Shown: piece after piece, positions 8,131-56,723 of the stretch
How positions within the stretch are numbered: the first letter of the stretch is position 1
Layout of the letters: every line of letters starts with the position of its first letter
NCBI GenBank assembly: GCA_000146465.1
Contig: CP001951.1
DNA length: 64,000 nucleotides
Direction: 5' to 3' (one strand)
Made by a program: the position numbers and the translations under genes
The notes under the pieces: model-generated
The model's database searches: none
What the model saw: the letters and a program-made list of their open reading frames with translations, nothing else
What the model was told of the DNA's origin: nothing

Positions 8131-8742
8131 TTACTCAAATTGCATATTAAGGTATTTGATGATATCTTCGGATTTTGTCTTTCCCAGGCCCGGAATCTTT
8201 TCCATCTCCTCAGAAGACTTCCCGAAGAATCTCAGAAGCGTTCCATTGTATTTAAGTATCTGCTGGGCATTGCTCTTGTTCACTTTTGGAAAGGCTGTCA
8301 GAAATCCCTCTTCATCATGGCTTCCCCTTCTTATTGCTTCAATCGACCTCTTTCCTGCTTCATCAAATCCCCGGATATATCGAGAGCATTCGTCTATGCT
8401 GAACCCCAATACCATGGTTAGTGAGGTTGTATCGAAGAGCTCTTGAATAGTTTTGCTATAGTTGGGAATATCTACATGCACTAATAATACCTTCACCTTA
8501 TATGGCTTAAGCTTATTGATCCTCTTATGGATGTATTCGGGTTTGCAGCTATGAAACCGAAGAGATAGGAACAGTAAAGCGGTAGATCTGTTTATCTCGT
8601 AATCGGGCGTTATAGAATTGTCGTAGTGCCAGGATGCATTTGAAAGATAGTTCAGAACATTGTTTCCTTTCTGTAATGGAGAAACTTTTATCATCGATGG
8701 GATAAACTCTGTTCTTTCTATTATGAAAAAAGCTGTTGACAT
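8131..8742 (-). CDS. DNA excision repair protein ERCC1/Rad10
   Basis: YIHKRINKLKPYKVKVLLVHVDIPNYSKTIQEL...LTMVLGFSIDECSRYIRGF central domain and a C-terminal HhH (IPGLGKTKSEDI). Track start 8772 is TTG; first ATG is 8742, which also removes the overlap with Rrp4. Confidence 0.75.
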   Translation of the reverse strand: MSTAFFIIERTEFIPSMIKVSPLQKGNNVLNYLSNASWHYDNSITPDYEINRSTALLFLSLRFHSCKPEYIHKRINKLKPYKVKVLLVHVDIPNYSKTIQELFDTTSLTMVLGFSIDECSRYIRGFDEAGKRSIEAIRRGSHDEEGFLTAFPKVNKSNAQQILKYNGTLLRFFGKSSEEMEKIPGLGKTKSEDIIKYLNMQFE

Positions 8743-8755
8743 CAGGAGTTTAATG

Positions 8756-9457
8756 TTATGAATTTTTTTCAAGTAATTCTTCCATGTTTATGTATCTATT
8801 CTGGGACACCATTGTCTTTATCTTAGAAACAAGACTGGCTATCTCTATGAAAGCCATGGGATCTTCTCGGGTTTTTCCAACCCATATGTATCCGTTACAT
8901 CCCACAATAACCTTGATGTTACCATGAAGGAGGAACCTCGTTCTGAGGGGCTCAAGTAGAAAGTGGGGCGCAAACACCAAGAGACCTTGGCCCAACTTCC
9001 CATACATGTCATTTCTTGTATGTAATGCAATCGTACCGTTTCGGTTGACTTTCTGAACTTCCGATACAACTAGATCGTTGATGTCGAAAAAGTCCCTCAT
9101 GGACATCTCATCCGATTCTTGTTTCCGCCGTTGAACTGTCCCCGGAAGGTTGATGGCTGACAGCCCTAGATAAGCATCTCCTCTACTGCTCAACTCAACC
9201 TTCCACTTCTTGTTGTGGATCCCAATAACCCTCCCCACAACAACATTGCCAACCTCTGGATTGTACTTCATGGAAGAAATAGGATCGATGGAGACGAGCT
9301 TGTTTGTGATCTTCACCCTTCCAAAGTAGGTTGATGCTATATTGCTTCCTCTAAGCTGTGTTCCATGCCCTCTTATATACCCATCGGACTCTAGAACGTC
9401 TTCCCCGGGAAGAAACAAAGTCTTCATTAGGGTACCGTTTCTGCGGCAAAAAACCAT
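8756..9457 (-). CDS. exosome component Rrp4 (S1 + KH)
   Basis: GNVVVGRVIGIHNKKWKVELSS S1 domain; KH region GNIKVIVGCNGYIWVG; overall Rrp4-like. Confidence 0.8.
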   Translation of the reverse strand: MVFCRRNGTLMKTLFLPGEDVLESDGYIRGHGTQLRGSNIASTYFGRVKITNKLVSIDPISSMKYNPEVGNVVVGRVIGIHNKKWKVELSSRGDAYLGLSAINLPGTVQRRKQESDEMSMRDFFDINDLVVSEVQKVNRNGTIALHTRNDMYGKLGQGLLVFAPHFLLEPLRTRFLLHGNIKVIVGCNGYIWVGKTREDPMAFIEIASLVSKIKTMVSQNRYINMEELLEKNS

Positions 9458-32770: not shown

Positions 32771-33262
32771 ATGGGATATAATTTGGCAATGACCCCAGCT
32801 TTGTTCATGTCAAGGTTGCCCAATCTTGCCTCCTCTCGTATGAATGAAATAAGAAAAGTCTACATAGAAGCCAACAATAGAATTGTTGAGGAAATAGATG
32901 CAGTAACAGAAAAGTTCTCAAAAGAAGTTGAGACCATTCCTAACATCTCGGCCAGCGTAAGGATATATCTTGAAGAAAAAATCAGATCTATACGTGAGTT
33001 TGTTGTCGATAGTATTGGATTTTCAATAGGCGAGTTTAGAGCCTTATACAATCCCGATGGAAATGAAAGCATAAAAACGAGAAGATTTCCAAAGTTCATA
33101 ACCGAGGCACTAGAAAGGAGCTTTGAGATTGACCAATATCCGTCCGAAGCCGAAAAGTCAAGACTTGCAAAAATATGTAAACTTTCGACAAAGCAAATAA
33201 ACAACTGGTTTACGAACAAAAGAAATAGAAGCAAAAGCCATGATGGGGGTAGGCAGTACTAG
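32771..33262 (+). CDS. homeobox protein, typical (non-TALE) 60-aa homeodomain
   Basis: RRFPKFITEALERSFEIDQYPSEAEKSRLAKICKLSTKQINNWFTNKRNR. Helix1-loop spacing matches a classical homeodomain with no 3-aa insertion. ATG confirmed. Confidence 0.8.
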   Translation: MGYNLAMTPALFMSRLPNLASSRMNEIRKVYIEANNRIVEEIDAVTEKFSKEVETIPNISASVRIYLEEKIRSIREFVVDSIGFSIGEFRALYNPDGNESIKTRRFPKFITEALERSFEIDQYPSEAEKSRLAKICKLSTKQINNWFTNKRNRSKSHDGGRQY

Positions 33263-33798: not shown

Positions 33799-34368
33799 AT
33801 GAACATGATAATGGATATATTGAATCAAGTTATGTATGCTGAAGAATGCTATTTCTCCAACAGAGTTAGCAGAGAGAAATTAATGGAAGACATAAGACGT
33901 CTTCGGAGTGAATACGAGATTGGAATAATGAGAGACTCTGGAAGAGAAGGAATAAAATTCAAAATGGCATTGCTATTTATTCTTAGAAGAGTGAGACACA
34001 AGATTATACTTGAAGACAGACTCATGGAGATGATTGATTCCGAGGTTGCTTTCGTTAGAGGATGTGTAAGCAGTATCATCTCTGAGCCCTTCGGAGTCAA
34101 GCCTGTAGAAACCATGAGGCCTACACAACAAGAAGCAGAGACCAGGTGTGCCAAACCAAGGACAAGGGCCAACTTCCCTATGGACACTTCACAGCTTCTG
34201 AGATCTTGGCTTAAAGAGAATATGGATAACCCATATCCATCGGATGCCGAAAAGGCATATCTTTGCCAGAAGACTGGCCTTGGTCCTGCACAGATTAATA
34301 ATTGGTTTATAAATGCTAGGAGAAGAATCTTACCTTTCATGAAAGGAAAGCGTGCGAGTTTCAAATAA
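33799..34368 (+). CDS. homeobox protein, TALE class
   Basis: TRANFPMDTSQLLRSWLKENMDNPYPSDAEKAYLCQKTGLGPAQINNWFINARRR has the PYP three-residue insertion and the WFINARRR helix 3. Track start 33781 is GTG; first ATG is 33799. Confidence 0.85.
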   Translation: MNMIMDILNQVMYAEECYFSNRVSREKLMEDIRRLRSEYEIGIMRDSGREGIKFKMALLFILRRVRHKIILEDRLMEMIDSEVAFVRGCVSSIISEPFGVKPVETMRPTQQEAETRCAKPRTRANFPMDTSQLLRSWLKENMDNPYPSDAEKAYLCQKTGLGPAQINNWFINARRRILPFMKGKRASFK

Positions 34369-39129: not shown

Positions 39130-41223
39130 ATGTCGTTTATAGTTGATTTGGAAATTGAAAGTTATTATATGTTACATAGTAAACAGCCCATGGAAATGCA
39201 AGAAAAAGACCTCGGACCCATAGTAGGATATAATCTTGAACTCAAAGATATTTTTCTTGAGGCTCCCAACAAAGATTTATCCTCAAGCACCAAGTATGTT
39301 AGGCTGATAAACGGCATATCTACAACTTTTGAATCAGGGAAATTGTCAGTTATCATGGGACCTAGTGGAAGTAGTAAAACAACATTGATAAATTTGATTG
39401 TAGGAATAATTCAAGAAAACTCGAAGGTCTCGGGAAATGTGCTTCTTCGTGGGAAATCAAGAAACCCAAAGACATGGTTAACCCAGGTTGCCTATCTAAA
39501 TCAGGATGACTGCATAGTTCCCTACATAACTATCCACGAATATATTTACTTTTGTGTGAGTTGCAGAACAACGAAAAAACAAAGAGGAGGAAGAAGTATT
39601 AATGAGATCATCAATAAGGTGATGAAAAAACTTCATATCGAGGATCTTAAGGACGTAGTTATGACGGCGATTTCAGGAGGGGAGAGGAAAAGGGTAATGA
39701 TAGCTGTTGAGTTTGCAGTTTCTCCAGAAGTATTGATTCTAGATGAGCCAACAAGTGGATTGGATTCACATCTTGCATTTGAATTAATTCAAATGATCAA
39801 GGAATATGCTGTTGAAAACAACAAGATTGTGATCACAACAGTCCATCAGCCAGGTCCGGGATTGTTTGATATGTTTGATTATCTCCTGTTTCTTAATAAG
39901 GGATCTTTGGTGTATTCGGGGTCTGCTGATCAATGCGAAAGATTTTTTGATTCTAAAGGAATTCATAGAGTCGGAAATCTGTCTGTGAGTGAATTTTTAT
40001 TTGAGCTTTTTTCTGGACAGTCGTATATCTCTGGAATTGAGGAGTATAGAGAGGCCATCAACAAAATGATAGAGTCTGCCGTCCAAGAGGGAGACTTGAA
40101 AATCGAAAACAAAACAATGAGCCAGATCTCTGGCTCTGTAGTTAAGCTTCCATTTAGTTTCTCAAAGGCACTCAAGATAGCTAAAAGAAAATGGATTATG
40201 GAATGGAGATCTTGGAGGATGATGAGGAATTGGATTTTCGAGATCGTTTTTCTTTTTGTCTATGTCTATTTCTTGTATCCAATGATCTTTTCTATAGAAT
40301 TTTTGAATTTTAAAAATCTCCTAAATCTAAACATAAACGAACGTGATGAAACAGAATCAGTTTTTCGTTGGCTTATAGGCTCCTTAAAATCCATGATTGA
40401 TGAATCTCTAGTGGGCAATGTAGATGAGGCAATCAAGTGGGAGATATGTTCATTTCTACTAATTACACTTTCCCTTTTCGGTTCGACAGACATACTTGAT
40501 GGCTTAAATTATGTCCACAGAGAAACATCCAAGGCAACATATGGCATATCCACACTTTACTTCTCGACATGGATTGCCGAAACACCTATAACCATTCTAA
40601 AATGCTTTGTATTTCTGGGGATTTCATCATCCATAGGAATTCATGGGGGAAATACGTTTGAACTAATCACTTACATAATTGTAGGAAGTCTTTTAATACT
40701 GGCATTTGATATTATGATGAGAAGCATTACATCTTCTAGTGCGTTTAGAAAGTTTCTCTCGATGATCACTTTCATATTTCTGACATCTCTTACTCCGGAG
40801 ATTTCATATACATTTACAAAAATACTCTCGGTTCCTTCGGCCGGAAATCTCAGACTTCTGAAACTTTTAAAGTATCCCTCTATACTTCTTTGGCCTCAAA
40901 TCTTCTTTCAAGGATTCATGAGGCTGTCTTTCTTTGAAAGGGTGATGTTCCCTAAGGAACCAAACGAGAAGTTTACTTTTATATACAAGGCCATTATGGG
41001 TTCAATAGTGACTCCACGTCTTTATGACCTACATCTTAGTGATGAAGAAAACAGAGAAAAGCTCCTCAATCCTCAGACCAGGTTTCTAGTAGATCAAAAC
41101 TACTCTAAATATATTCTATTGCCTCTTGGAGCTACTTCTCTCATAATAGTTATCCTTTTAAGTAATTACTTTCTTGTGAGAAGATTTTCTCCTCGCTTAC
41201 AGCTTAACCTATCCAATAAATAA
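39130..41223 (+). CDS. ABC transporter, ABCG-type half transporter (NBD-TMD order)
   Basis: Walker A GPSGSSKTTL, signature ISGGERKRV, Walker B LILDEPTSGLDS, followed by a 6-TM domain. Confidence 0.85.
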   Translation: MSFIVDLEIESYYMLHSKQPMEMQEKDLGPIVGYNLELKDIFLEAPNKDLSSSTKYVRLINGISTTFESGKLSVIMGPSGSSKTTLINLIVGIIQENSKVSGNVLLRGKSRNPKTWLTQVAYLNQDDCIVPYITIHEYIYFCVSCRTTKKQRGGRSINEIINKVMKKLHIEDLKDVVMTAISGGERKRVMIAVEFAVSPEVLILDEPTSGLDSHLAFELIQMIKEYAVENNKIVITTVHQPGPGLFDMFDYLLFLNKGSLVYSGSADQCERFFDSKGIHRVGNLSVSEFLFELFSGQSYISGIEEYREAINKMIESAVQEGDLKIENKTMSQISGSVVKLPFSFSKALKIAKRKWIMEWRSWRMMRNWIFEIVFLFVYVYFLYPMIFSIEFLNFKNLLNLNINERDETESVFRWLIGSLKSMIDESLVGNVDEAIKWEICSFLLITLSLFGSTDILDGLNYVHRETSKATYGISTLYFSTWIAETPITILKCFVFLGISSSIGIHGGNTFELITYIIVGSLLILAFDIMMRSITSSSAFRKFLSMITFIFLTSLTPEISYTFTKILSVPSAGNLRLLKLLKYPSILLWPQIFFQGFMRLSFFERVMFPKEPNEKFTFIYKAIMGSIVTPRLYDLHLSDEENREKLLNPQTRFLVDQNYSKYILLPLGATSLIIVILLSNYFLVRRFSPRLQLNLSNK

Positions 41224-41260: not shown

Positions 41261-41593
41261 ATGGAGTCTTTGATTCTTTGGGATGGAAGAAGCATCTGTG
41301 GGCTTAAAAAGATTCCAAAGACAATACTAATAGTTGATGAATACAACACAATAACACCCGAGAAAAAAAGTAAGATAAAAGACTCCGTGGCTGAAATGGA
41401 CATAGACTTTGAAGAGGAGGCAACACGTTATTCTCTTGTGATCCTTTGCAACACTGTCTTGAGGTTTAACCTAAAGAACCCACTCGTCTTGGCAGAATGT
41501 GAGATTTGGTTTACTAGAAAGACCTTTTCCTCAAAAGTATTTGAAGATGCTCTTATTCACTATTCGGAATGTGAAATAAGAAATGGAGTGTAA
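41261..41593 (+). CDS. hypothetical small protein (110 aa)
   Basis: ATG-initiated ORF filling the gap between the ABC and UBC12 genes. No family recognised. Its last 11 nt overlap the UBC12 ATG unless UBC12 starts at Met7. Confidence 0.3.
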   Translation: MESLILWDGRSICGLKKIPKTILIVDEYNTITPEKKSKIKDSVAEMDIDFEEEATRYSLVILCNTVLRFNLKNPLVLAECEIWFTRKTFSSKVFEDALIHYSECEIRNGV

Positions 41594-42062
41594 ACAACCC
41601 ATGAACCCCCGAGAAGATTCCTCGTTTGCAGCTTTCCGGTTAAAGACCGAGATTGAATCTATCCAACTTCTCCCAGGATCACTGTTGAATGTGGATAGGT
41701 CTTCTGAGGATAAATACGCTATGGAAATAAAATATTCCATGATGATCACAGAAGGAATATATAAAAATCGCTTGTTTCGATTCAAGATAAAGATACCGCA
41801 TGCCTATCCATTTAAGCCTCCAAAGCTTTTGTGTCTGGATAAAGTGTTCCATCCAAATATTGATGATGATGGAAATGTTTGCATGGAGATTTTGAGGCTA
41901 GGGTGGAGGCCTAGCCATGGGTTGGAGAGCATACTTGTTAATCTTTATGTTATATTTGTTGAAATCACAGGAGAAGATGCATTAAACACACAGGCAGGAG
42001 ATTTATTCAAGCTAGACTATGAAAGGTTTGTAAGAATTGCAAGGGGCCAGGAAAGAATCTAA
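41583..42062 (+). CDS. NEDD8-conjugating enzyme UBC12-like E2
   Basis: YPFKPPKLLCLDKVFHPNIDDDGNVCMEILRLGWRPSHGLESI; N-terminal extension typical of UBC12. Confidence 0.8.
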   Translation: MECKQPMNPREDSSFAAFRLKTEIESIQLLPGSLLNVDRSSEDKYAMEIKYSMMITEGIYKNRLFRFKIKIPHAYPFKPPKLLCLDKVFHPNIDDDGNVCMEILRLGWRPSHGLESILVNLYVIFVEITGEDALNTQAGDLFKLDYERFVRIARGQERI

Positions 42063-44062: not shown

Positions 44063-44899
44063 TTATTCATTCTTTCTCTTAAGCTTCACAAACTCCACTA
44101 GGCGATCAATAAACCTGCCAGAAGTCTTTCCATGGTAAAAGTTTTCTATAAATCCAGAAATAATCTCGTTGGACACTCTTTCCCAGTACCTCATTGCAAT
44201 TCTTATTTCTCGCCTTATGTCTTCAATCTCTCTTTGAATGTCAACATTCTTGATCATCTCATTCATTTTCTTACTCATCTTTATTCTCTTCATATGAAGG
44301 AACGATATATTCAGGTCCTTTGCAGAAACTCCTCTCTCAAGGTTTCTTCGGACATATACATCATAGTTCCTCACTATGTCTGTTATTATTCCACTAGTAC
44401 TAATTCCCTTTGTTCTTTTGATCGGTATAAACATCCCCATGTCTTTTACAAACTTGTAGATATCGTCCTTATTCTCTCCCTTGTACGGAATGTCATCATG
44501 CGCAACAAAATCTATTCTATGCTTTTGAAGGAATTCCGATGTTAACTCCCATGGTGCACTTGTTATAACTTCATCAACATATCTGCAATGGATTAGTCCT
44601 TCAGCTCTTTCTTTTTCGTTCATGACAAGATTTCCCTTAAGTCTTATAGTTATGTCGTCATCTGTAACCCCAACCAGCAAGTAGACATTTGGAAAAAGAT
44701 TCTTTGCTTGTTTCAAACTTCGGGCATGTCCATAATGAAATAGATCGTACACCCCATCGCAGTATATTCTAACAGGCCTATTCACAGGGACCTTATACAT
44801 CCCAACTTCAGAGGTCATCTCTTCATACTCGAAGGTATTTCTGTCGGGATATGTGGGAGCCATCATCTTGTATTTCTCTGTGTCGTTTCTCTTCATCAT
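44063..44899 (-). CDS. choline-phosphate cytidylyltransferase (CCT/PCT1)
   Basis: [23 protein letters not shown] (HxGH), [26 protein letters not shown], and a C-terminal amphipathic helix region. Near full-length match to CCT. Confidence 0.9.
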
Positions 44900-45018
44900 G
44901 GGCTAGGTTTGCAGAACGAAAAATAAAACCAAACAAATTCTCTGTCTGTGTAAGGTTTCTTCACAGTAATCAGAAACAATCAAAGTTACTAAATCTTTGC
45001 CTTTGTTTATTAGAATTA

Positions 45019-45630
45019 TCATTGGATATAGTCCAAGTCCTGAGGAATCCCAAAGCTACTGTTAAACTCTGACTTTTCCATTGCAAACTTGTTACAGATA
45101 TAATCTTGTATAACAAAAATGTTGTCAACAATCTTATTATACTCGTCGATTACTTTCTTTCTATCTCCGATAAGCTTGTCATAGACTATAGGATCTGTTT
45201 CTTCGAACTTCTTTAGCTCTTTTTTTTGTTCTTCCTCCATCTTCTCTAGGGAATTCAGCCTTTCTTCCAGCCTGCTTCTCTCTTCCGTGTAGTTCTTGGA
45301 CTTTCTTTCGTCTTCTAAGTGTTTTCTCTTGTTAGAAATGTCTTCAGACATTCTTTTACATTCGTCCATAAGCTCTTTACACTTCAACTTCTTCTTTTGG
45401 ACTCCTTCAGATGCAAACGACCAATACAGATTGGAGGTTCCAACCTTCTCGACAGTGACAAGACCTTCGTCAACAAGCTGTTGTAGAATTTCTTTGATCG
45501 TATTTACCACTATCCCCTTCTTCGAGCCCAGAGTTTCCAATTCCTGTAACTTGAAGAATGACTTACTTGTTCTTATTATCTCCAATAGAATGCTTTTCTT
45601 CTGGTCTGCTTTCATCTTGACTGTTGCCAT
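45019..45630 (-). CDS. meiotic recombination protein Mnd1
   Basis: FKLQELETLGSKKGI...VKEILQQLVDEGLV..EKVGTSNLYWSFAS...coiled coil...TDNIFVIQDYICNKFAMEKSEFNSSFGIPQDLDYIQ is collinear with Mnd1 end to end. Track start 45780 is TTG; homology supports ATG 45630 (an alternative ATG lies at 45702). Confidence 0.8.
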   Translation of the reverse strand: MATVKMKADQKKSILLEIIRTSKSFFKLQELETLGSKKGIVVNTIKEILQQLVDEGLVTVEKVGTSNLYWSFASEGVQKKKLKCKELMDECKRMSEDISNKRKHLEDERKSKNYTEERSRLEERLNSLEKMEEEQKKELKKFEETDPIVYDKLIGDRKKVIDEYNKIVDNIFVIQDYICNKFAMEKSEFNSSFGIPQDLDYIQ

Positions 45631-45700
45631 GACTACAGGGCTCCTCTCGAAGTAGCTTATTAGTGTTTCCAATACTTTATTTCCATAGGATCTATACCCC

Positions 45701-46966
45701 ATGATGTCGTTAGAGCTGACCAAAGAGAATATCAATGCAGTTTCTCTTGAGCTTGTGAAGAACAAAAAGATGTTTGACAAGAACGTGAATTATGTAATGG
45801 GTTTCATGCTTAAATCTTTTCCCGAGAAAAACGAGCTTCTTAGTAGAATCAAAGTCCTCAATATTAAATCAAGATCAGCAAAGAAGATAGACCCCGAGTC
45901 CGATGTTATGGAACAGATAGCTATGAATGTCTTTGCCATAAAGAATCTTGACGAAGGAAGTTTCACCAAGAACATGCTAGCCCTCTTCAGGGACCCAAGT
46001 TCCTTTTCTCAAGCATTCCTTACCTACTTCTATTCTAACTTAAATCTTAGCACTACGAAGACAGATGAGATCTTGAACGGGCTCGTAGAATTACTCTTAT
46101 CTGAGTCCAAACTCAAAAAAAGCTTCATGAATTTTATGAATTCGATTGAACTCTCGGAGGATTCTGAATCTATTTCCCTGGAGGAGGCCAAAAGTCTACA
46201 CAAAGCCTCAGATGATCACACCTTTGAAAAGATAATAAATAAGGAAAGTTATGATGAGTCATCAAGCACAGTGATGTCTCTAGTCTCCCTGGACGACTCT
46301 GAAGAAATCAAAAGAATCGATACATCTATTTCCCTGCTGTTTGAAGGAAAGAGAGAAAAGATGTCTATGCTGTCGATACTAGTGTGCACTAGAGTATTGA
46401 ACATTATAAGGATCATACTGGAAAACAACTACCCAAGAGATGTAGATGTTATTCCTGTTCTTATGTACATCGCAGAGATAGACCAGACAATTTTCAAGAA
46501 ATCAATGTCTGCTATCAAGATAATATTAAGGAAAACAGATTATAGAGACAAAGAAAAGCTGTTTGAAATGTTCTGTGCTCTACTCGAACGAAACCCAGGC
46601 ATTATAAGAATGGCAATGCTTTTTGTGGATACTTGTGGAAAACACTTCAACTGGCCGAGATTCCTTGAAATTATAGATGGGAACGAAGAGATTGATCTGG
46701 ATGTCGTGGATAGGTCTTACATTCCAAATTCTTCCTTCTATGAATTTATATTGTTTGCCGAGGATCCAAGGAGATACATGAAGACAATCAAAAGCATGAT
46801 TAGAAACGAGTTAGACTCTTCTCTTCTTAGAGATTTAAAAGAAAAGATTAATGGAAGACCTGATCTAAAAGATATAAAGCCGATCAAAGATGCTATAAGC
46901 TCCCGTCTTAAGCTATTAAGCCAAAAAAAGTGTTCTAAAAAGGAAAGGAAAGATAACAGTAACTAA
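45701..46966 (+). CDS. hypothetical helical protein (421 aa)
   Basis: Clean ORF from ATG 45701, K/E-rich, with no diagnostic motif. Its ATG overlaps the alternative ATG 45702 of Mnd1 on the other strand. Confidence 0.45.
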   Translation: MMSLELTKENINAVSLELVKNKKMFDKNVNYVMGFMLKSFPEKNELLSRIKVLNIKSRSAKKIDPESDVMEQIAMNVFAIKNLDEGSFTKNMLALFRDPSSFSQAFLTYFYSNLNLSTTKTDEILNGLVELLLSESKLKKSFMNFMNSIELSEDSESISLEEAKSLHKASDDHTFEKIINKESYDESSSTVMSLVSLDDSEEIKRIDTSISLLFEGKREKMSMLSILVCTRVLNIIRIILENNYPRDVDVIPVLMYIAEIDQTIFKKSMSAIKIILRKTDYRDKEKLFEMFCALLERNPGIIRMAMLFVDTCGKHFNWPRFLEIIDGNEEIDLDVVDRSYIPNSSFYEFILFAEDPRRYMKTIKSMIRNELDSSLLRDLKEKINGRPDLKDIKPIKDAISSRLKLLSQKKCSKKERKDNSN

Positions 46967-47015: not shown

Positions 47016-47930
47016 CTATGAAACACATTTTCGATGGCAAAAACTCGTTCTCCCTCCCTTTTCAAGAGAAACAGCATCCTTTAGTATCCATCTGTCTTCC
47101 TGATCATCCCATTCAACTTCTATTCTGCTACGGCAAACATCACAAAGTGCTGGGCCTCCGGAATGGACAATCTTCTCGACTTTTTCAACCTCTAGCCTGA
47201 GTTTAATCTTCTCGATGTTTTTTGTCCATGCTTCTAGAGTTGGAAAGAATTCTCTGCTTATACAATCCTTTTCTCCTAGAACCCTTGCTTTTCTTCGATG
47301 CTCGTCGATGTGAACTCCCATTTGCTCATCGCCTTCTGGAGTATCTTTATACCTCAGACCGCATAGTTTGCATTGGTTTGGATAGTATAGAATAGAGGGA
47401 TCCATCTCAGTCTTCAAGTACTCGTTATTCAAAATATCCGATTCCTGCTCTTTTTTATCCCATAGGTTTTTTGTTCTTGCCTCCTCAAGCACACTTCTGC
47501 TTGTTTTTTTACTGGCCACTTCCTTTGGTTTGGAATCAGTTTCTCCCTCCTCATCAATGAGTGTATTTCTTTCATTAATGCTGGCCTTGATCATATCCTC
47601 CGAGCTGGAAGAACTTTCTTCGTCTATTCTAGGTCTTTTGGGTTTTTCCTCCTGGCTTTCTCCAGATAAAAGTTTGAATATCTTGTGATTTCTATTAAAT
47701 TCATCTTTGTACTTTTCAAAAAGACTCAGATACCTAGTATCCTTGCTACAAAGTAGAAAAAGAAAATCCAAAACCGCCTCTTTTCCAAGCAGGCTTCTAT
47801 GATTCTTGATCAATGCATCACTCACAGCTTCTTCATTGTATCGAAAGCTTTCAGAAATCATAAGCAAAACATTCTGTGTAATCTTGTCGTTCTTTTTGAG
47901 GGCCTTCAGGAGGGAAACAAACTCATCCAT
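47016..47930 (-). CDS. putative mRNA 3'-end processing factor (Pcf11-like: CID-like N-terminus plus C-terminal zinc fingers)
   Basis: N-terminal helical region resembling a CID/RPR domain. C-terminal C-x2-C-x13-H-x4-H (CKLCGLRYKDTPEGDEQMGVHIDEH) and a second Cys cluster CDVC...CHRKC. Track start 47969 is TTG; first ATG is 47930. Confidence 0.45.
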   Translation of the reverse strand: MDEFVSLLKALKKNDKITQNVLLMISESFRYNEEAVSDALIKNHRSLLGKEAVLDFLFLLCSKDTRYLSLFEKYKDEFNRNHKIFKLLSGESQEEKPKRPRIDEESSSSSEDMIKASINERNTLIDEEGETDSKPKEVASKKTSRSVLEEARTKNLWDKKEQESDILNNEYLKTEMDPSILYYPNQCKLCGLRYKDTPEGDEQMGVHIDEHRRKARVLGEKDCISREFFPTLEAWTKNIEKIKLRLEVEKVEKIVHSGGPALCDVCRSRIEVEWDDQEDRWILKDAVSLEKGGRTSFCHRKCVS

Positions 47931-53983: not shown

Positions 53984-54008
53984 GAATGCAATAGGAAGGA
54001 AATTAAAG

Positions 54009-55175
54009 ATGATAAAGCTCTCACTTCTCCTAAGTCTAGCGAGCTTCACTGCAGTTCTTGCAAACCAAAGGCCTCGCTGCCAAAGATGCCCAGTGAGCAG
54101 CAGTAAGTACTTCCAACAAAATAATCTTCTTGGAAGCAGGTTCCAAAACGAGGTACAGAGACTTTGCGCCCGCCGTGTGCGAGAAGAAAGTTCTTCTGAA
54201 TCATCCTCTTCCTCTAGCTCTGAAGACTGCTCCCGAAGAAGGAGAAGACCCCACAGAGAATGGGAGGACAGCTGTTCATCATCATATTCTTCTTGCAGTA
54301 GCACAGATAGCTGCTCTTCAAGCGCCCCCTGCCCACCTCCAGTGGCTCAAAGGTGTGATATCGAACTCAAGACTCCTATAATCCTGATGGGAGAAAGGAT
54401 CTACGAATTCCTCAAGAACTACGAGGACCAGTACAAGAAGGCTGTTCTTCTTTTCTTGACCAATATCCTTTCGCAGATCTCAGGATTCAACCCAGTCTTC
54501 CCTGGTGGAGACTACGATGCTCTGATTGAACAACTCAAGACACTTGGAGTCACTGTCCCAGCAAACACTGCTGCCGAGCTTGCCGCCATAGATGCTGCTG
54601 AGTCGTCAGCCCTCACAAGGGCCATTCAGGCCAATGCACAGAAGGTAATTAGCGATCTACTTACCAGGGTCAGTGCCATGTGCTACTTGGACATCATGAG
54701 CCTTGTCAACAGTGGTCTTCTAGCCAGCCAAGTCTCAAGTGTTTTCAACAACATCCAGCCAATAATCACCATTGCCGGAAATGATTTGTTTGCCAAACAG
54801 ATGGCAGTGTTCCAGAAGATACCAGGAACTCTGCCCTCCGCTGCCATCACAGCTATCACCAATGCTCTCCAAGGCAACAGGACCAACTTTGTCACATTCT
54901 TTACAACTCAGACAAGCAATCTGCAAACAAGCGTCCAGAACTCTCTTACAACCCTGATTTCTGAGCTTGAGAAGCTGGCCACCGACACGGAGACTGCCTT
55001 CACAGCTTTTGCAAATGCAGAAATTTCAGCACTTATAAGCAGAATCTTCCCAACATCCACCACATCTTCGGGATCCGGAGACTCTACAGGGTCTGGAAGC
55101 ACGGGAGATGCAGGAGATGCGGGAGATACAGGAGAGGACGGCGGAGATGATGAGGGTACAGAAGGAACTGGTTAG
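54009..55175 (+). CDS. secreted Cys-rich spore wall protein, SWP1-like
   Basis: Signal peptide [18 protein letters not shown]; exactly 10 Cys, all in the N-terminal two-thirds; Ser-rich acidic stretch; C-terminal Gly/Ser/Thr/Asp repeats ([30 protein letters not shown]). The gene is visibly GC-richer than its neighbours. Length and Cys count fit published descriptions of Encephalitozoon SWP1. Confidence 0.6.
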
Positions 55176-55370
55176 AACTACCTATCCTAATGTCTGAGTC
55201 CGGAATCGGCTGTTATAAAGCATAGCAAAATATCAGCCAGGACTCAAATGGCCTCGTGGTTAGAATATGCCCATATACTATCTTCGCTGATATCAAGGCT
55301 TTTCACAAGGCTGTAAATAAAACTGATTTCCAAACTAGTGTATTTTAACGATGTGTGGTTGGGAAGACCC

Positions 55371-56723
55371 ATGAAGTTTGAGGATTTGAAAATCGACCAA
55401 AGAATTGAGAAAGGATTAAGAGAAAGTGGATTTGTAGATATGAAAGAAATTCAGCAGAAGGTTATTCCAATGGCACTGGAAGGACATGACATAATTGGAT
55501 CTTCGCAGACCGGAACGGGAAAAACGCTTGCTTTTCTTGTTCCCATTTTGCAGAAGTTAACCGATCTCCAATGGAGCGGAGGAGATGGTCTTGGATGCGT
55601 GATAATCACTCCAACACGTGAACTGGCCTTACAGATATTCGACGTCCTCAGTAAAGTTGGAAAATACACTGTATTGAGCACAGGATTGATTATGGGGGGA
55701 CTTGAGACAGAAAACGAATCTTTAAGATTGAGCAATATGAACATTCTAGTATGCACACCGGGGAGGTTTCTCCAGCATCTGCAGGAGAATCCTTATCTAA
55801 ATACCGGGGGGATCCAGATACTGGTTCTTGATGAGGCCGACAAGATGATAGAGATGGGGTTCAAAGAGACTTTGGAAGATATACTTGGGTACATTCCTTC
55901 TAAGAAGCAGACCTTGCTGTTTTCTGCAACACCCAAAGCCTCAACGGCTAGAATCCTAAGGTTAGAAGATCCCAAGATCGTTTCTATGTATAAGGAAGAG
56001 GGATTTCCATCTCAACTACACCAATATTTCTATATGATGAGGATGGAAGACAAGGTCAATTATCTACATACGTTTATTGGAAGTAATCCTGGAGTTAAAG
56101 GAATTGTATTCTTTAGTACTTGCAAAGAAGTTAAGTTTCATTATCTTTTGTTTGAAAAGCTTAAGCTTCGCAATAGAATCTTTTGTCTCAGCGGTGGTAT
56201 GTCGCAAAAGCAAAGAATAGATACGTTCAAAAAGTTTGTGAGAGAGAAAAACGGAATTCTGTTCTGCACGGATCTGGGCTCCAGAGGACTGGATTTTCCT
56301 AAAGTTGATGTGGTTATACAATATGATTGCCCATGCAATATTGAAACGTACGTCCATCGTGTGGGAAGAACAGCCCGAAATAATGAGGGTGGAGAGTCCT
56401 ATGTGTATCTTGTTTATGGAGAGGAAAAACTTCTTGGGGATATTCAGAAGAAAGGATGGATTAAAAAACAAGAAACTGAAAGTAAAGATGAAGAAGACAG
56501 AGGTAGCTCTGAAGAAATTGTAGAGGGGCCAAATATCCGTATCAAGTCCATTGATAGGATGATTAAAGGCCTTATAAAGTCAAACAAGGAACTTAATGAG
56601 TATTGTAGGAAGTATCTTACTACATACGAGAAGTTCCTTACATTCAGTAGTAAAAGATATTCCGAGAGCATAATAAGAAAGATCTCAATCCTATACGAAT
56701 ATTTTGGGATTTCAAAAGATTAG
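55371..56723 (+). CDS. DEAD-box ATP-dependent RNA helicase (Dbp4/DDX10-like)
   Basis: Q motif region; GSSQTGTGKT, PTRELALQ, ILVCTPGRFLQHL, VLDEADKM, SAT, HRVGRTAR. Track start 55338 is GTG; first ATG is 55371. Confidence 0.85.
   Translation: MKFEDLKIDQRIEKGLRESGFVDMKEIQQKVIPMALEGHDIIGSSQTGTGKTLAFLVPILQKLTDLQWSGGDGLGCVIITPTRELALQIFDVLSKVGKYTVLSTGLIMGGLETENESLRLSNMNILVCTPGRFLQHLQENPYLNTGGIQILVLDEADKMIEMGFKETLEDILGYIPSKKQTLLFSATPKASTARILRLEDPKIVSMYKEEGFPSQLHQYFYMMRMEDKVNYLHTFIGSNPGVKGIVFFSTCKEVKFHYLLFEKLKLRNRIFCLSGGMSQKQRIDTFKKFVREKNGILFCTDLGSRGLDFPKVDVVIQYDCPCNIETYVHRVGRTARNNEGGESYVYLVYGEEKLLGDIQKKGWIKKQETESKDEEDRGSSEEIVEGPNIRIKSIDRMIKGLIKSNKELNEYCRKYLTTYEKFLTFSSKRYSESIIRKISILYEYFGISKD

Follow-up and report, generated by a model that had tools for sequence, protein, structure and literature searches.

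The Mnd1 locus of Encephalitozoon intestinalis: a probable single-exon orthologue of 203 amino acids, its start codon and its bearing on meiosis

Identity and fold of the Mnd1 product

The window analysed here is a 64-kb stretch of contig CP001951.1 from the microsporidian Encephalitozoon intestinalis. On its minus strand, at 45019-45630, lies a gene that the initial annotation had assigned to Mnd1, a gene of meiotic recombination. Our results agree with this assignment: the locus is very probably a single-exon Mnd1 orthologue, translated from the ATG at 45630 into a protein of 203 amino acids (aa) that consists of a winged helix, three leucine zippers and a capping helix. The product was 100% identical to the GenBank entry 'putative meiotic recombination protein' of E. 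intestinalis ATCC 50506, with the same start and stop. MND1 of E. intestinalis is listed as Eint_101570 (PMC4435813 Suppl. Data 5), and a comparison with Eint_101570 revealed no difference at any of the 203 residues; the two are the same gene. Public databases and literature published between 2005 and 2015 already contain the gene, the 203-aa model and the argument that the gene points to possible sex in Encephalitozoon. The gene comprises the following features, in which AF2 denotes a structural model made with AlphaFold2:

45019..45630, minus strand: Mnd1 coding sequence, 203 codons plus a TGA stop (45021-45019), identical to the annotated protein
45412..45588, minus strand: N-terminal winged-helix DNA-binding domain (WHD), residues 15-73 (PF03962, AF2 model)
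45202..45408, minus strand: central coiled coil of leucine zippers 1 and 2 (LZ1 and LZ2), residues about 75-143 (AF2 model; collinear with Giardia Mnd1)
45025..45177, minus strand: C-terminal leucine zipper 3 with capping helix (LZ3wCH), residues 152-202 (PF18517, AF2 model)
45006..45011, minus strand: AATAAA polyadenylation-type signal, starting 8 nt past the Mnd1 stop codon

Two Pfam profiles matched the 203-aa product at opposite ends. The profile of the Mnd1 helix-turn-helix domain (PF03962) scored 86.7 bits against a cut-off of 23.5 and was covered completely (profile positions 1-60 of 60), which identifies the N-terminus as a winged helix of the Mnd1 type. At the C-terminus, the LZ3wCH profile (PF18517) scored 51.6 bits against a cut-off of 26.1 (profile positions 5-55 of 55). 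The profile search did not favour any other coiled-coil family. Weak matches below the threshold to other winged-helix or coiled-coil families (Penicillinase_R, ATG14), and the fact that Hop2 has the same architecture as Mnd1, could be taken to mean that the gene belongs to another such family, for instance Hop2/TBPIP. We consider this reading, like the notion that the gene is a decaying relic, hardly credible. The Mnd1-specific Pfam model was far above its cut-off, whereas the 203-aa product gave no Hop2/TBPIP match in Pfam at E <= 0.01.

Sequence and fold searches likewise favoured the Mnd1 chain over the structurally paralogous Hop2 chain. A phmmer search against the PDB aligned residues 7-203 of the product with residues 7-203 of the 203-aa Mnd1 chain 4y66_A of Giardia (E = 1.9e-23), and the Mnd1 chain was the only 4Y66 chain that was matched. 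Neither this alignment nor the two Pfam scores can reasonably be put down to chance. The top match in Foldseek was the Mnd1 chain 4y66_C (E = 1e-9, 31% identity), whereas the Hop2 chains followed at E about 1e-3 and 14% identity. For Foldseek we used the ranking and the identity, and set aside the template modelling (TM) score (TM 0.33, root-mean-square deviation 20 Å to 4Y66), since an extended heterodimeric rod, when modelled as a monomer, takes on a different bend. The proposed collinearity with Mnd1, from the N-terminal winged helix to the C-terminal FGIPQDLDYIQ, thus held: the product ends in this motif and the alignment to 4y66_A runs to residue 203. The proteins of E. intestinalis and Giardia lamblia (PDB 4Y66) are both 203 aa long, and WHD, LZ1, LZ2 and LZ3wCH are all aligned, at 31% identity in the structural alignment. 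They differ in that the lineages are distant, and in that Encephalitozoon has no Dmc1, which is usually the client recombinase of Hop2-Mnd1.

An AF2 monomer model was built on nine orthologues. The model shows a winged helix with helices at residues 8-21, 28-37 and 42-55 and a beta hairpin at 59-70, followed by three leucine-zipper helices (75-110, 112-143 and 147-182) that are collinear with LZ1-3 of Giardia, and by a capping helix at 186-193. Conservation among the nine orthologues varied along the protein. Invariant residues occupied 41 of the 74 positions in the N-terminal winged-helix part and 21 of the 57 positions in the LZ3wCH end, which is the end that binds the recombinase filament in the Giardia structure (PMC10136221). 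The central zippers were least conserved (16 of 72 positions).

The pattern of substitution speaks against a relic as well. There were no insertions or deletions in Mnd1 across Encephalitozoon and Ordospora, and the length of 203 aa is kept across genera. Within Encephalitozoon, the proportion of nonsynonymous differences (pN) was 0.07-0.11, compared with a saturated proportion of synonymous differences (pS) of 0.60-0.86. The ratio of nonsynonymous to synonymous substitution rates (dN/dS) was 0.063 and 0.070 in two species pairs; for the remaining pairs pN and pS are given instead, because their synonymous sites were saturated. Judged by these substitutions, Mnd1 is under strong purifying selection. 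Pfam, the PDB alignment, selection and Foldseek are all contrary to a pseudogene and to a Hop2 identity, and both were rejected.

The structure and biochemistry of Hop2-Mnd1 have been reviewed (PMC10136221). By analogy with the complexes of Giardia, yeast and mammals, the three zippers of Mnd1 would join it to Hop2 (Eint_010870) in a parallel coiled-coil heterodimer. The paired winged-helix domains would capture duplex DNA, while the LZ3wCH end would bind and stabilise the presynaptic filament of a RecA-family recombinase and promote strand invasion. With no Dmc1 in Encephalitozoon, Rad51 (Eint_110690) would have to be the client. Mnd1 of Saccharomyces cerevisiae (YGL183C) and human MND1 belong to the same family, and share the presumed role of a Hop2 partner that stimulates recombinase-mediated strand invasion. 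In yeast, however, this function is genetically tied to Dmc1 (PMC10136221), whereas Encephalitozoon has Rad51 alone. This Rad51-only situation resembles the Rad51-linked roles of human MND1 in somatic cells and in alternative telomere lengthening (ALT) (PMC10136221, PMC10323883).

Position of the start codon

The ORF found mechanically at this locus (45019..45780, minus strand) is longer than the gene, comprising 253 aa and beginning on a TTG. It contains in-frame ATGs at 45702 (codon 27), 45630 (codon 51) and 45615 (codon 56). All coordinates in the initial annotation agreed with the ORF list and the sequence. The region upstream of Mnd1 contains the following features:

45778..45780, minus strand: TTG 'start' of the 253-aa ORF, antisense inside the coding sequence of the neighbour; the first 27 codons overlap the plus-strand gene at 45701-46966
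45700..45702, minus strand: in-frame upstream ATG, not a start; it arises when the CATG with the start codon of the neighbour is read in reverse, and there is no CCC or GGG in the 20 upstream nt
45636..45643, minus strand: conserved GAGCCCTG element, with CCC at 45640-45638, at -10 to -8 from ATG 45630
45631..45700, without strand: divergent intergenic region of 70 bp between Mnd1 and the 421-aa neighbour, poorly conserved in the alignment save at both ends
45701..46966, plus strand: divergent neighbour, annotated with 421 aa, without Pfam match; its start reads CCCC (45697-45700) followed by ATGATG

The TTG is not a standard eukaryotic initiator, and the start at this codon is an artefact that arises when ORFs are listed under the bacterial code. 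The initial annotation had placed the true start at ATG 45630 rather than at the start of the listed ORF, and here orthologue lengths, upstream stops and the start-proximal signal are in agreement with it. Nine of the ten orthologues found were exactly 203 aa long. Gene calls on contigs of E. intestinalis, E. cuniculi, E. hellem, E. romaleae and Ordospora all began at the ATG equivalent to 45630. It had also been stressed that the annotated start matters, but the point is moot, as the public annotation already has ATG 45630 and 203 aa.

Translation from ATG 45702 (227 aa), or from farther upstream, would give a longer N-terminus and a head-to-head overlap with the divergent gene. The frame in E. 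intestinalis is indeed open for 53 codons upstream, including ATG 45702. However, the in-frame extension runs into a stop in three species (E. cuniculi at -27, E. romaleae and Ordospora at -45), and in E. hellem it has no in-frame upstream ATG. Furthermore, the extension lacks a CCC or GGG signal and is covered by no Pfam model or structural homologue. Of the 129 overlapping pairs of coding sequences in the first annotation of E. cuniculi, 120 vanished after correction of the start codons (PMC2803860). The ATG at 45702-45700 on the minus strand and the ATG at 45701-45703 of the 421-aa neighbour on the plus strand share positions 45701 and 45702, because both sit in the palindrome CATG. From the compared loci, the open extension in E. 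intestinalis is a species-specific accident, antisense to the first 27 codons of the neighbour. Hence, a longer N-terminus is very improbable, and it was rejected since the comparative data contradict it.

The intergenic region points to the same start. In microsporidia, a CCC (or GGG) within about 15-20 nt upstream defines a signal of the true AUG (Cornman 2009; Peyretaillade 2009). Data from rapid amplification of cDNA ends in E. cuniculi revealed 5' untranslated regions (UTRs) of <7 nt and the CCC rule, which was used to correct 364 start codons of this species (PMC2803860). Within the window, 25 of the 43 first ATGs had a CCC within 20 nt upstream, compared with 12.9% of all ATGs (binomial p = 3e-12). 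The signal was present at ATG 45630 and absent at 45702 and 45615. The CCCT core of the GAGCCCTG element was invariant in six of six aligned loci, and by its sequence and position the element is a microsporidian CCC-like start-proximal signal. A second conserved intergenic element, CATGGGG, belongs to the neighbour and was found in the five loci whose aligned stretch spans the start of the neighbour; the Ordospora stretch in the alignment was too short for it, and CATGGG was seen there separately. The most likely transcription start of Mnd1 would lie within the 70-bp divergent promoter region, shortly after the CCC element and a few bases before ATG 45630. At the other end of the gene, the AATAAA at 45006-45011 may serve Mnd1, consistent with the use of AAUAAA and the very short 3' UTRs reported in Encephalitozoon (PMC2803860).

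Several observations weigh against our reading of the gene and its start. The confidence of the AF2 monomer model was just moderate (pLDDT 74.7, pTM 0.34), the choice of ATG 45630 draws on comparative and motif evidence, and both pairing with Hop2 and reliance on Rad51 are suggested by analogy. In addition, translation might start at the second conserved methionine, ATG 45615 (Met6), giving 198 aa. Met6 was invariant in nine of nine orthologues, the homology with Giardia Mnd1 starts at residue 7 only, and in one relative the codon of Met1 is ATA, so that this species must use another start. Yet the first AUG met downstream of the CCC element is ATG 45630, which five of six loci have kept, ATG 45615 has no CCC of its own in the 20 upstream nt, and Met1 is used by all public annotations. 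Scanning normally picks the first AUG as well, unless the 5' UTR is too short. We therefore regard a start at Met6 as improbable, and retain ATG 45630.

The relative with the ATA codon is an Encephalitozoon- or Ordospora-like organism represented by a Logan contig of SRR21023573 (L007:2918-3580). Its gene call uses an upstream ATG at a distance of 51 nt (220 aa), with the GGGG of the neighbour in front of it; the conserved Met6 is the alternative. Judging from this contig, it looks like a natural shift of the start codon.

Neighbouring genes and other features of the window

The window is gene-dense, as is typical of microsporidia, and encodes ISWI, ERCC1, Rrp4, a HECT ligase, proteasome subunits, GlnRS, enolase, dynamin and HMG-CoA reductase, among others. 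A tRNA scan of the 64-kb window found none.

The surroundings of Mnd1 are shared with related species. Mnd1 of E. cuniculi (ECU10_1600), E. hellem, E. romaleae and Ordospora pajunii is 203 aa long and 62-80% identical to that of E. intestinalis. All five species have the same gene order, consisting of a 304-aa gene, the divergent 421-aa gene, Mnd1, a cytidylyltransferase and LSM. The CCC element before the Mnd1 ATG is also alike in the other four species, whereas the intergenic sequence is otherwise unconserved and the upstream frame, open by chance in E. intestinalis, is stopped in most of them. The size of the divergent neighbour is kept at 416-447 aa in all related loci. Beyond it, the gene at 47016-47930 (minus strand) is annotated with 304 aa from a CCC-preceded ATG at 47930, not as the 317-aa ORF that begins on TTG; it has a weak match to a PCFS4-type zinc finger (E = 0.0026). 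Every Encephalitozoon and Ordospora locus has, directly downstream of Mnd1, a choline-phosphate cytidylyltransferase-like gene (PF01467), which in the window occupies 44063-44899 (minus strand). The same adjacency is found in the distant Vavraia culicis (VCUG_01233/VCUG_01234; supplementary expression table, PMC4435813), which implies that this microsynteny is old.

Some other ORFs of the window have the CCC at a downstream in-frame ATG and not at the first one. Examples are Rad10/ERCC1 (Met17), Rrp4 (Met11), an ABC protein (Met21/23) and UBC (Met7), and ORFs shifted in this way lie at 8131-8742 (minus), 8756-9457 (minus), 39130-41223 (plus) and 41583-42062 (plus). The longest-ORF starts of these four genes are probably too long as well. 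A peak in GC content (0.461, compared with about 0.40) at 54001-56000 spans a 388-aa ORF at 54009-55175 (plus strand). This ORF lacks a Pfam match, and neither CCC nor GGG precedes its first ATG.

Two tandem homeobox genes lie on the plus strand at 32771-33262 and 33799-34368, about 11 kb from Mnd1 and about 540 bp apart, in the part of the window with the lowest GC content (0.359). The first encodes a typical homeodomain (…QINNWFTNKRNR) and the second a TALE/KN homeodomain (…NPYPS…QINNWFINARRR). A pair of a typical and a TALE homeodomain is the layout of fungal homeodomain (HD) mating-type loci. As cited in PMC1851970, a pair of this kind in E. cuniculi was put forward by Bürglin 2003 as a putative mating locus, and the pair in the window may be its counterpart.

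Meiosis or recombinational repair

From the retention of Mnd1 the initial annotation had argued for a cryptic meiotic cycle. The argument from such genes is not new, having been published between 2005 and 2008 (Ramesh et al. 2005, Gill & Fast 2007, Malik et al. 2008; PMC2488364, PMC1851970). Among the 43 gene-like ORFs of the window, Pfam found no Hop2/TBPIP, Spo11/TP6A, Rad51/Dmc1 or Msh4/5, and hence no second meiotic gene. The published inventory of E. intestinalis lists SPO11 (Eint_041090), HOP1 (Eint_020840), HOP2 (Eint_010870), MND1 and RAD51 (Eint_110690) as present, whereas DMC1, MSH4, MSH5 and REC8 are absent from both E. intestinalis and E. cuniculi (PMC4435813 Suppl. Data 5). For E. 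cuniculi/Encephalitozoon, Malik 2008 (PMC2488364) also reported Dmc1, Msh4 and Msh5 as missing, but Rec8 as present, so that the inventories conflict on Rec8. By the published table (PMC4435813), the core meiotic toolkit of E. intestinalis is incomplete. Of the coherent toolkit that had been suggested for a check (Hop2, Spo11 and Dmc1), Hop2 and Spo11 are listed there and Dmc1 is not.

Contrary to the initial annotation, Mnd1 is also not strictly meiosis-specific. Human MND1 aids somatic homologous recombination and ALT, and Mnd1 has a DNA-damage role in Arabidopsis, where mnd1 mutants are sensitive to gamma rays (PMC10136221, PMC10323883). Retention of the gene therefore gives cryptic meiosis partial support: Spo11, Hop1, Hop2, Mnd1 and Rad51 are listed, but Dmc1, Msh4 and Msh5 are missing and Mnd1 has non-meiotic roles.

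Hop2-Mnd1 might have been kept just as an accessory of Rad51 for ordinary (mitotic) repair of double-strand breaks and gene conversion, in which case its presence would be uninformative on meiosis. We find this explanation plausible, at somewhat less than an even chance. The absence of Dmc1, Msh4 and Msh5 in both inventories, and that of Rec8 in PMC4435813 alone, is consistent with it, as are the somatic and DNA-damage roles in human cells and Arabidopsis. Moreover, E. cuniculi lacks non-homologous end joining and much of homologous-recombination repair (PMC1851970), so that it may be unable to do without those recombination factors that are left. In E. aedis and V. culicis, MND1 and HOP2 were expressed in all stages including spores, and the authors suggested extra roles (PMC4435813). 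Against a purely repair-related role, Spo11 and Hop1, whose known roles are meiotic, are also kept (PMC2488364, PMC4435813). Furthermore, Encephalitozoon is a diploid whose heterozygosity is extremely low, and E. intestinalis reads as one too; selfing or a meiosis-like process would fit this (PMC10845963), and meiosis has been documented cytologically in other microsporidia (PMC2488364, PMC10845963). Overall, whether Mnd1 acts in a meiosis-like process initiated by Spo11 or in ordinary double-strand-break repair appears roughly evenly balanced.

As a finding, Mnd1 in this window has little significance beyond confirmation, and the useful by-products are methodological. In ORF tracks made under the bacterial code, microsporidian genes are drawn too long and run into the antisense of divergent neighbours, and the CCC motif, together with stop codons compared across species, offers a cheap way to resolve the true start. 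For the biology of Encephalitozoon, we put forward a tentative and rather unlikely proposal. The genus may have kept a minimal module of Spo11, Hop1, Hop2-Mnd1 and Rad51, without Dmc1 and Msh4/5, in which Hop2-Mnd1 would act solely via Rad51 and the LZ3wCH end would be strongly conserved for that purpose. Driven by this module, a cryptic process of selfing or gene conversion with few crossovers would lead to near-complete homozygosity of the diploid genomes. If true, the Dmc1-less module would show that a stripped-down meiosis-like programme occurs in nature.

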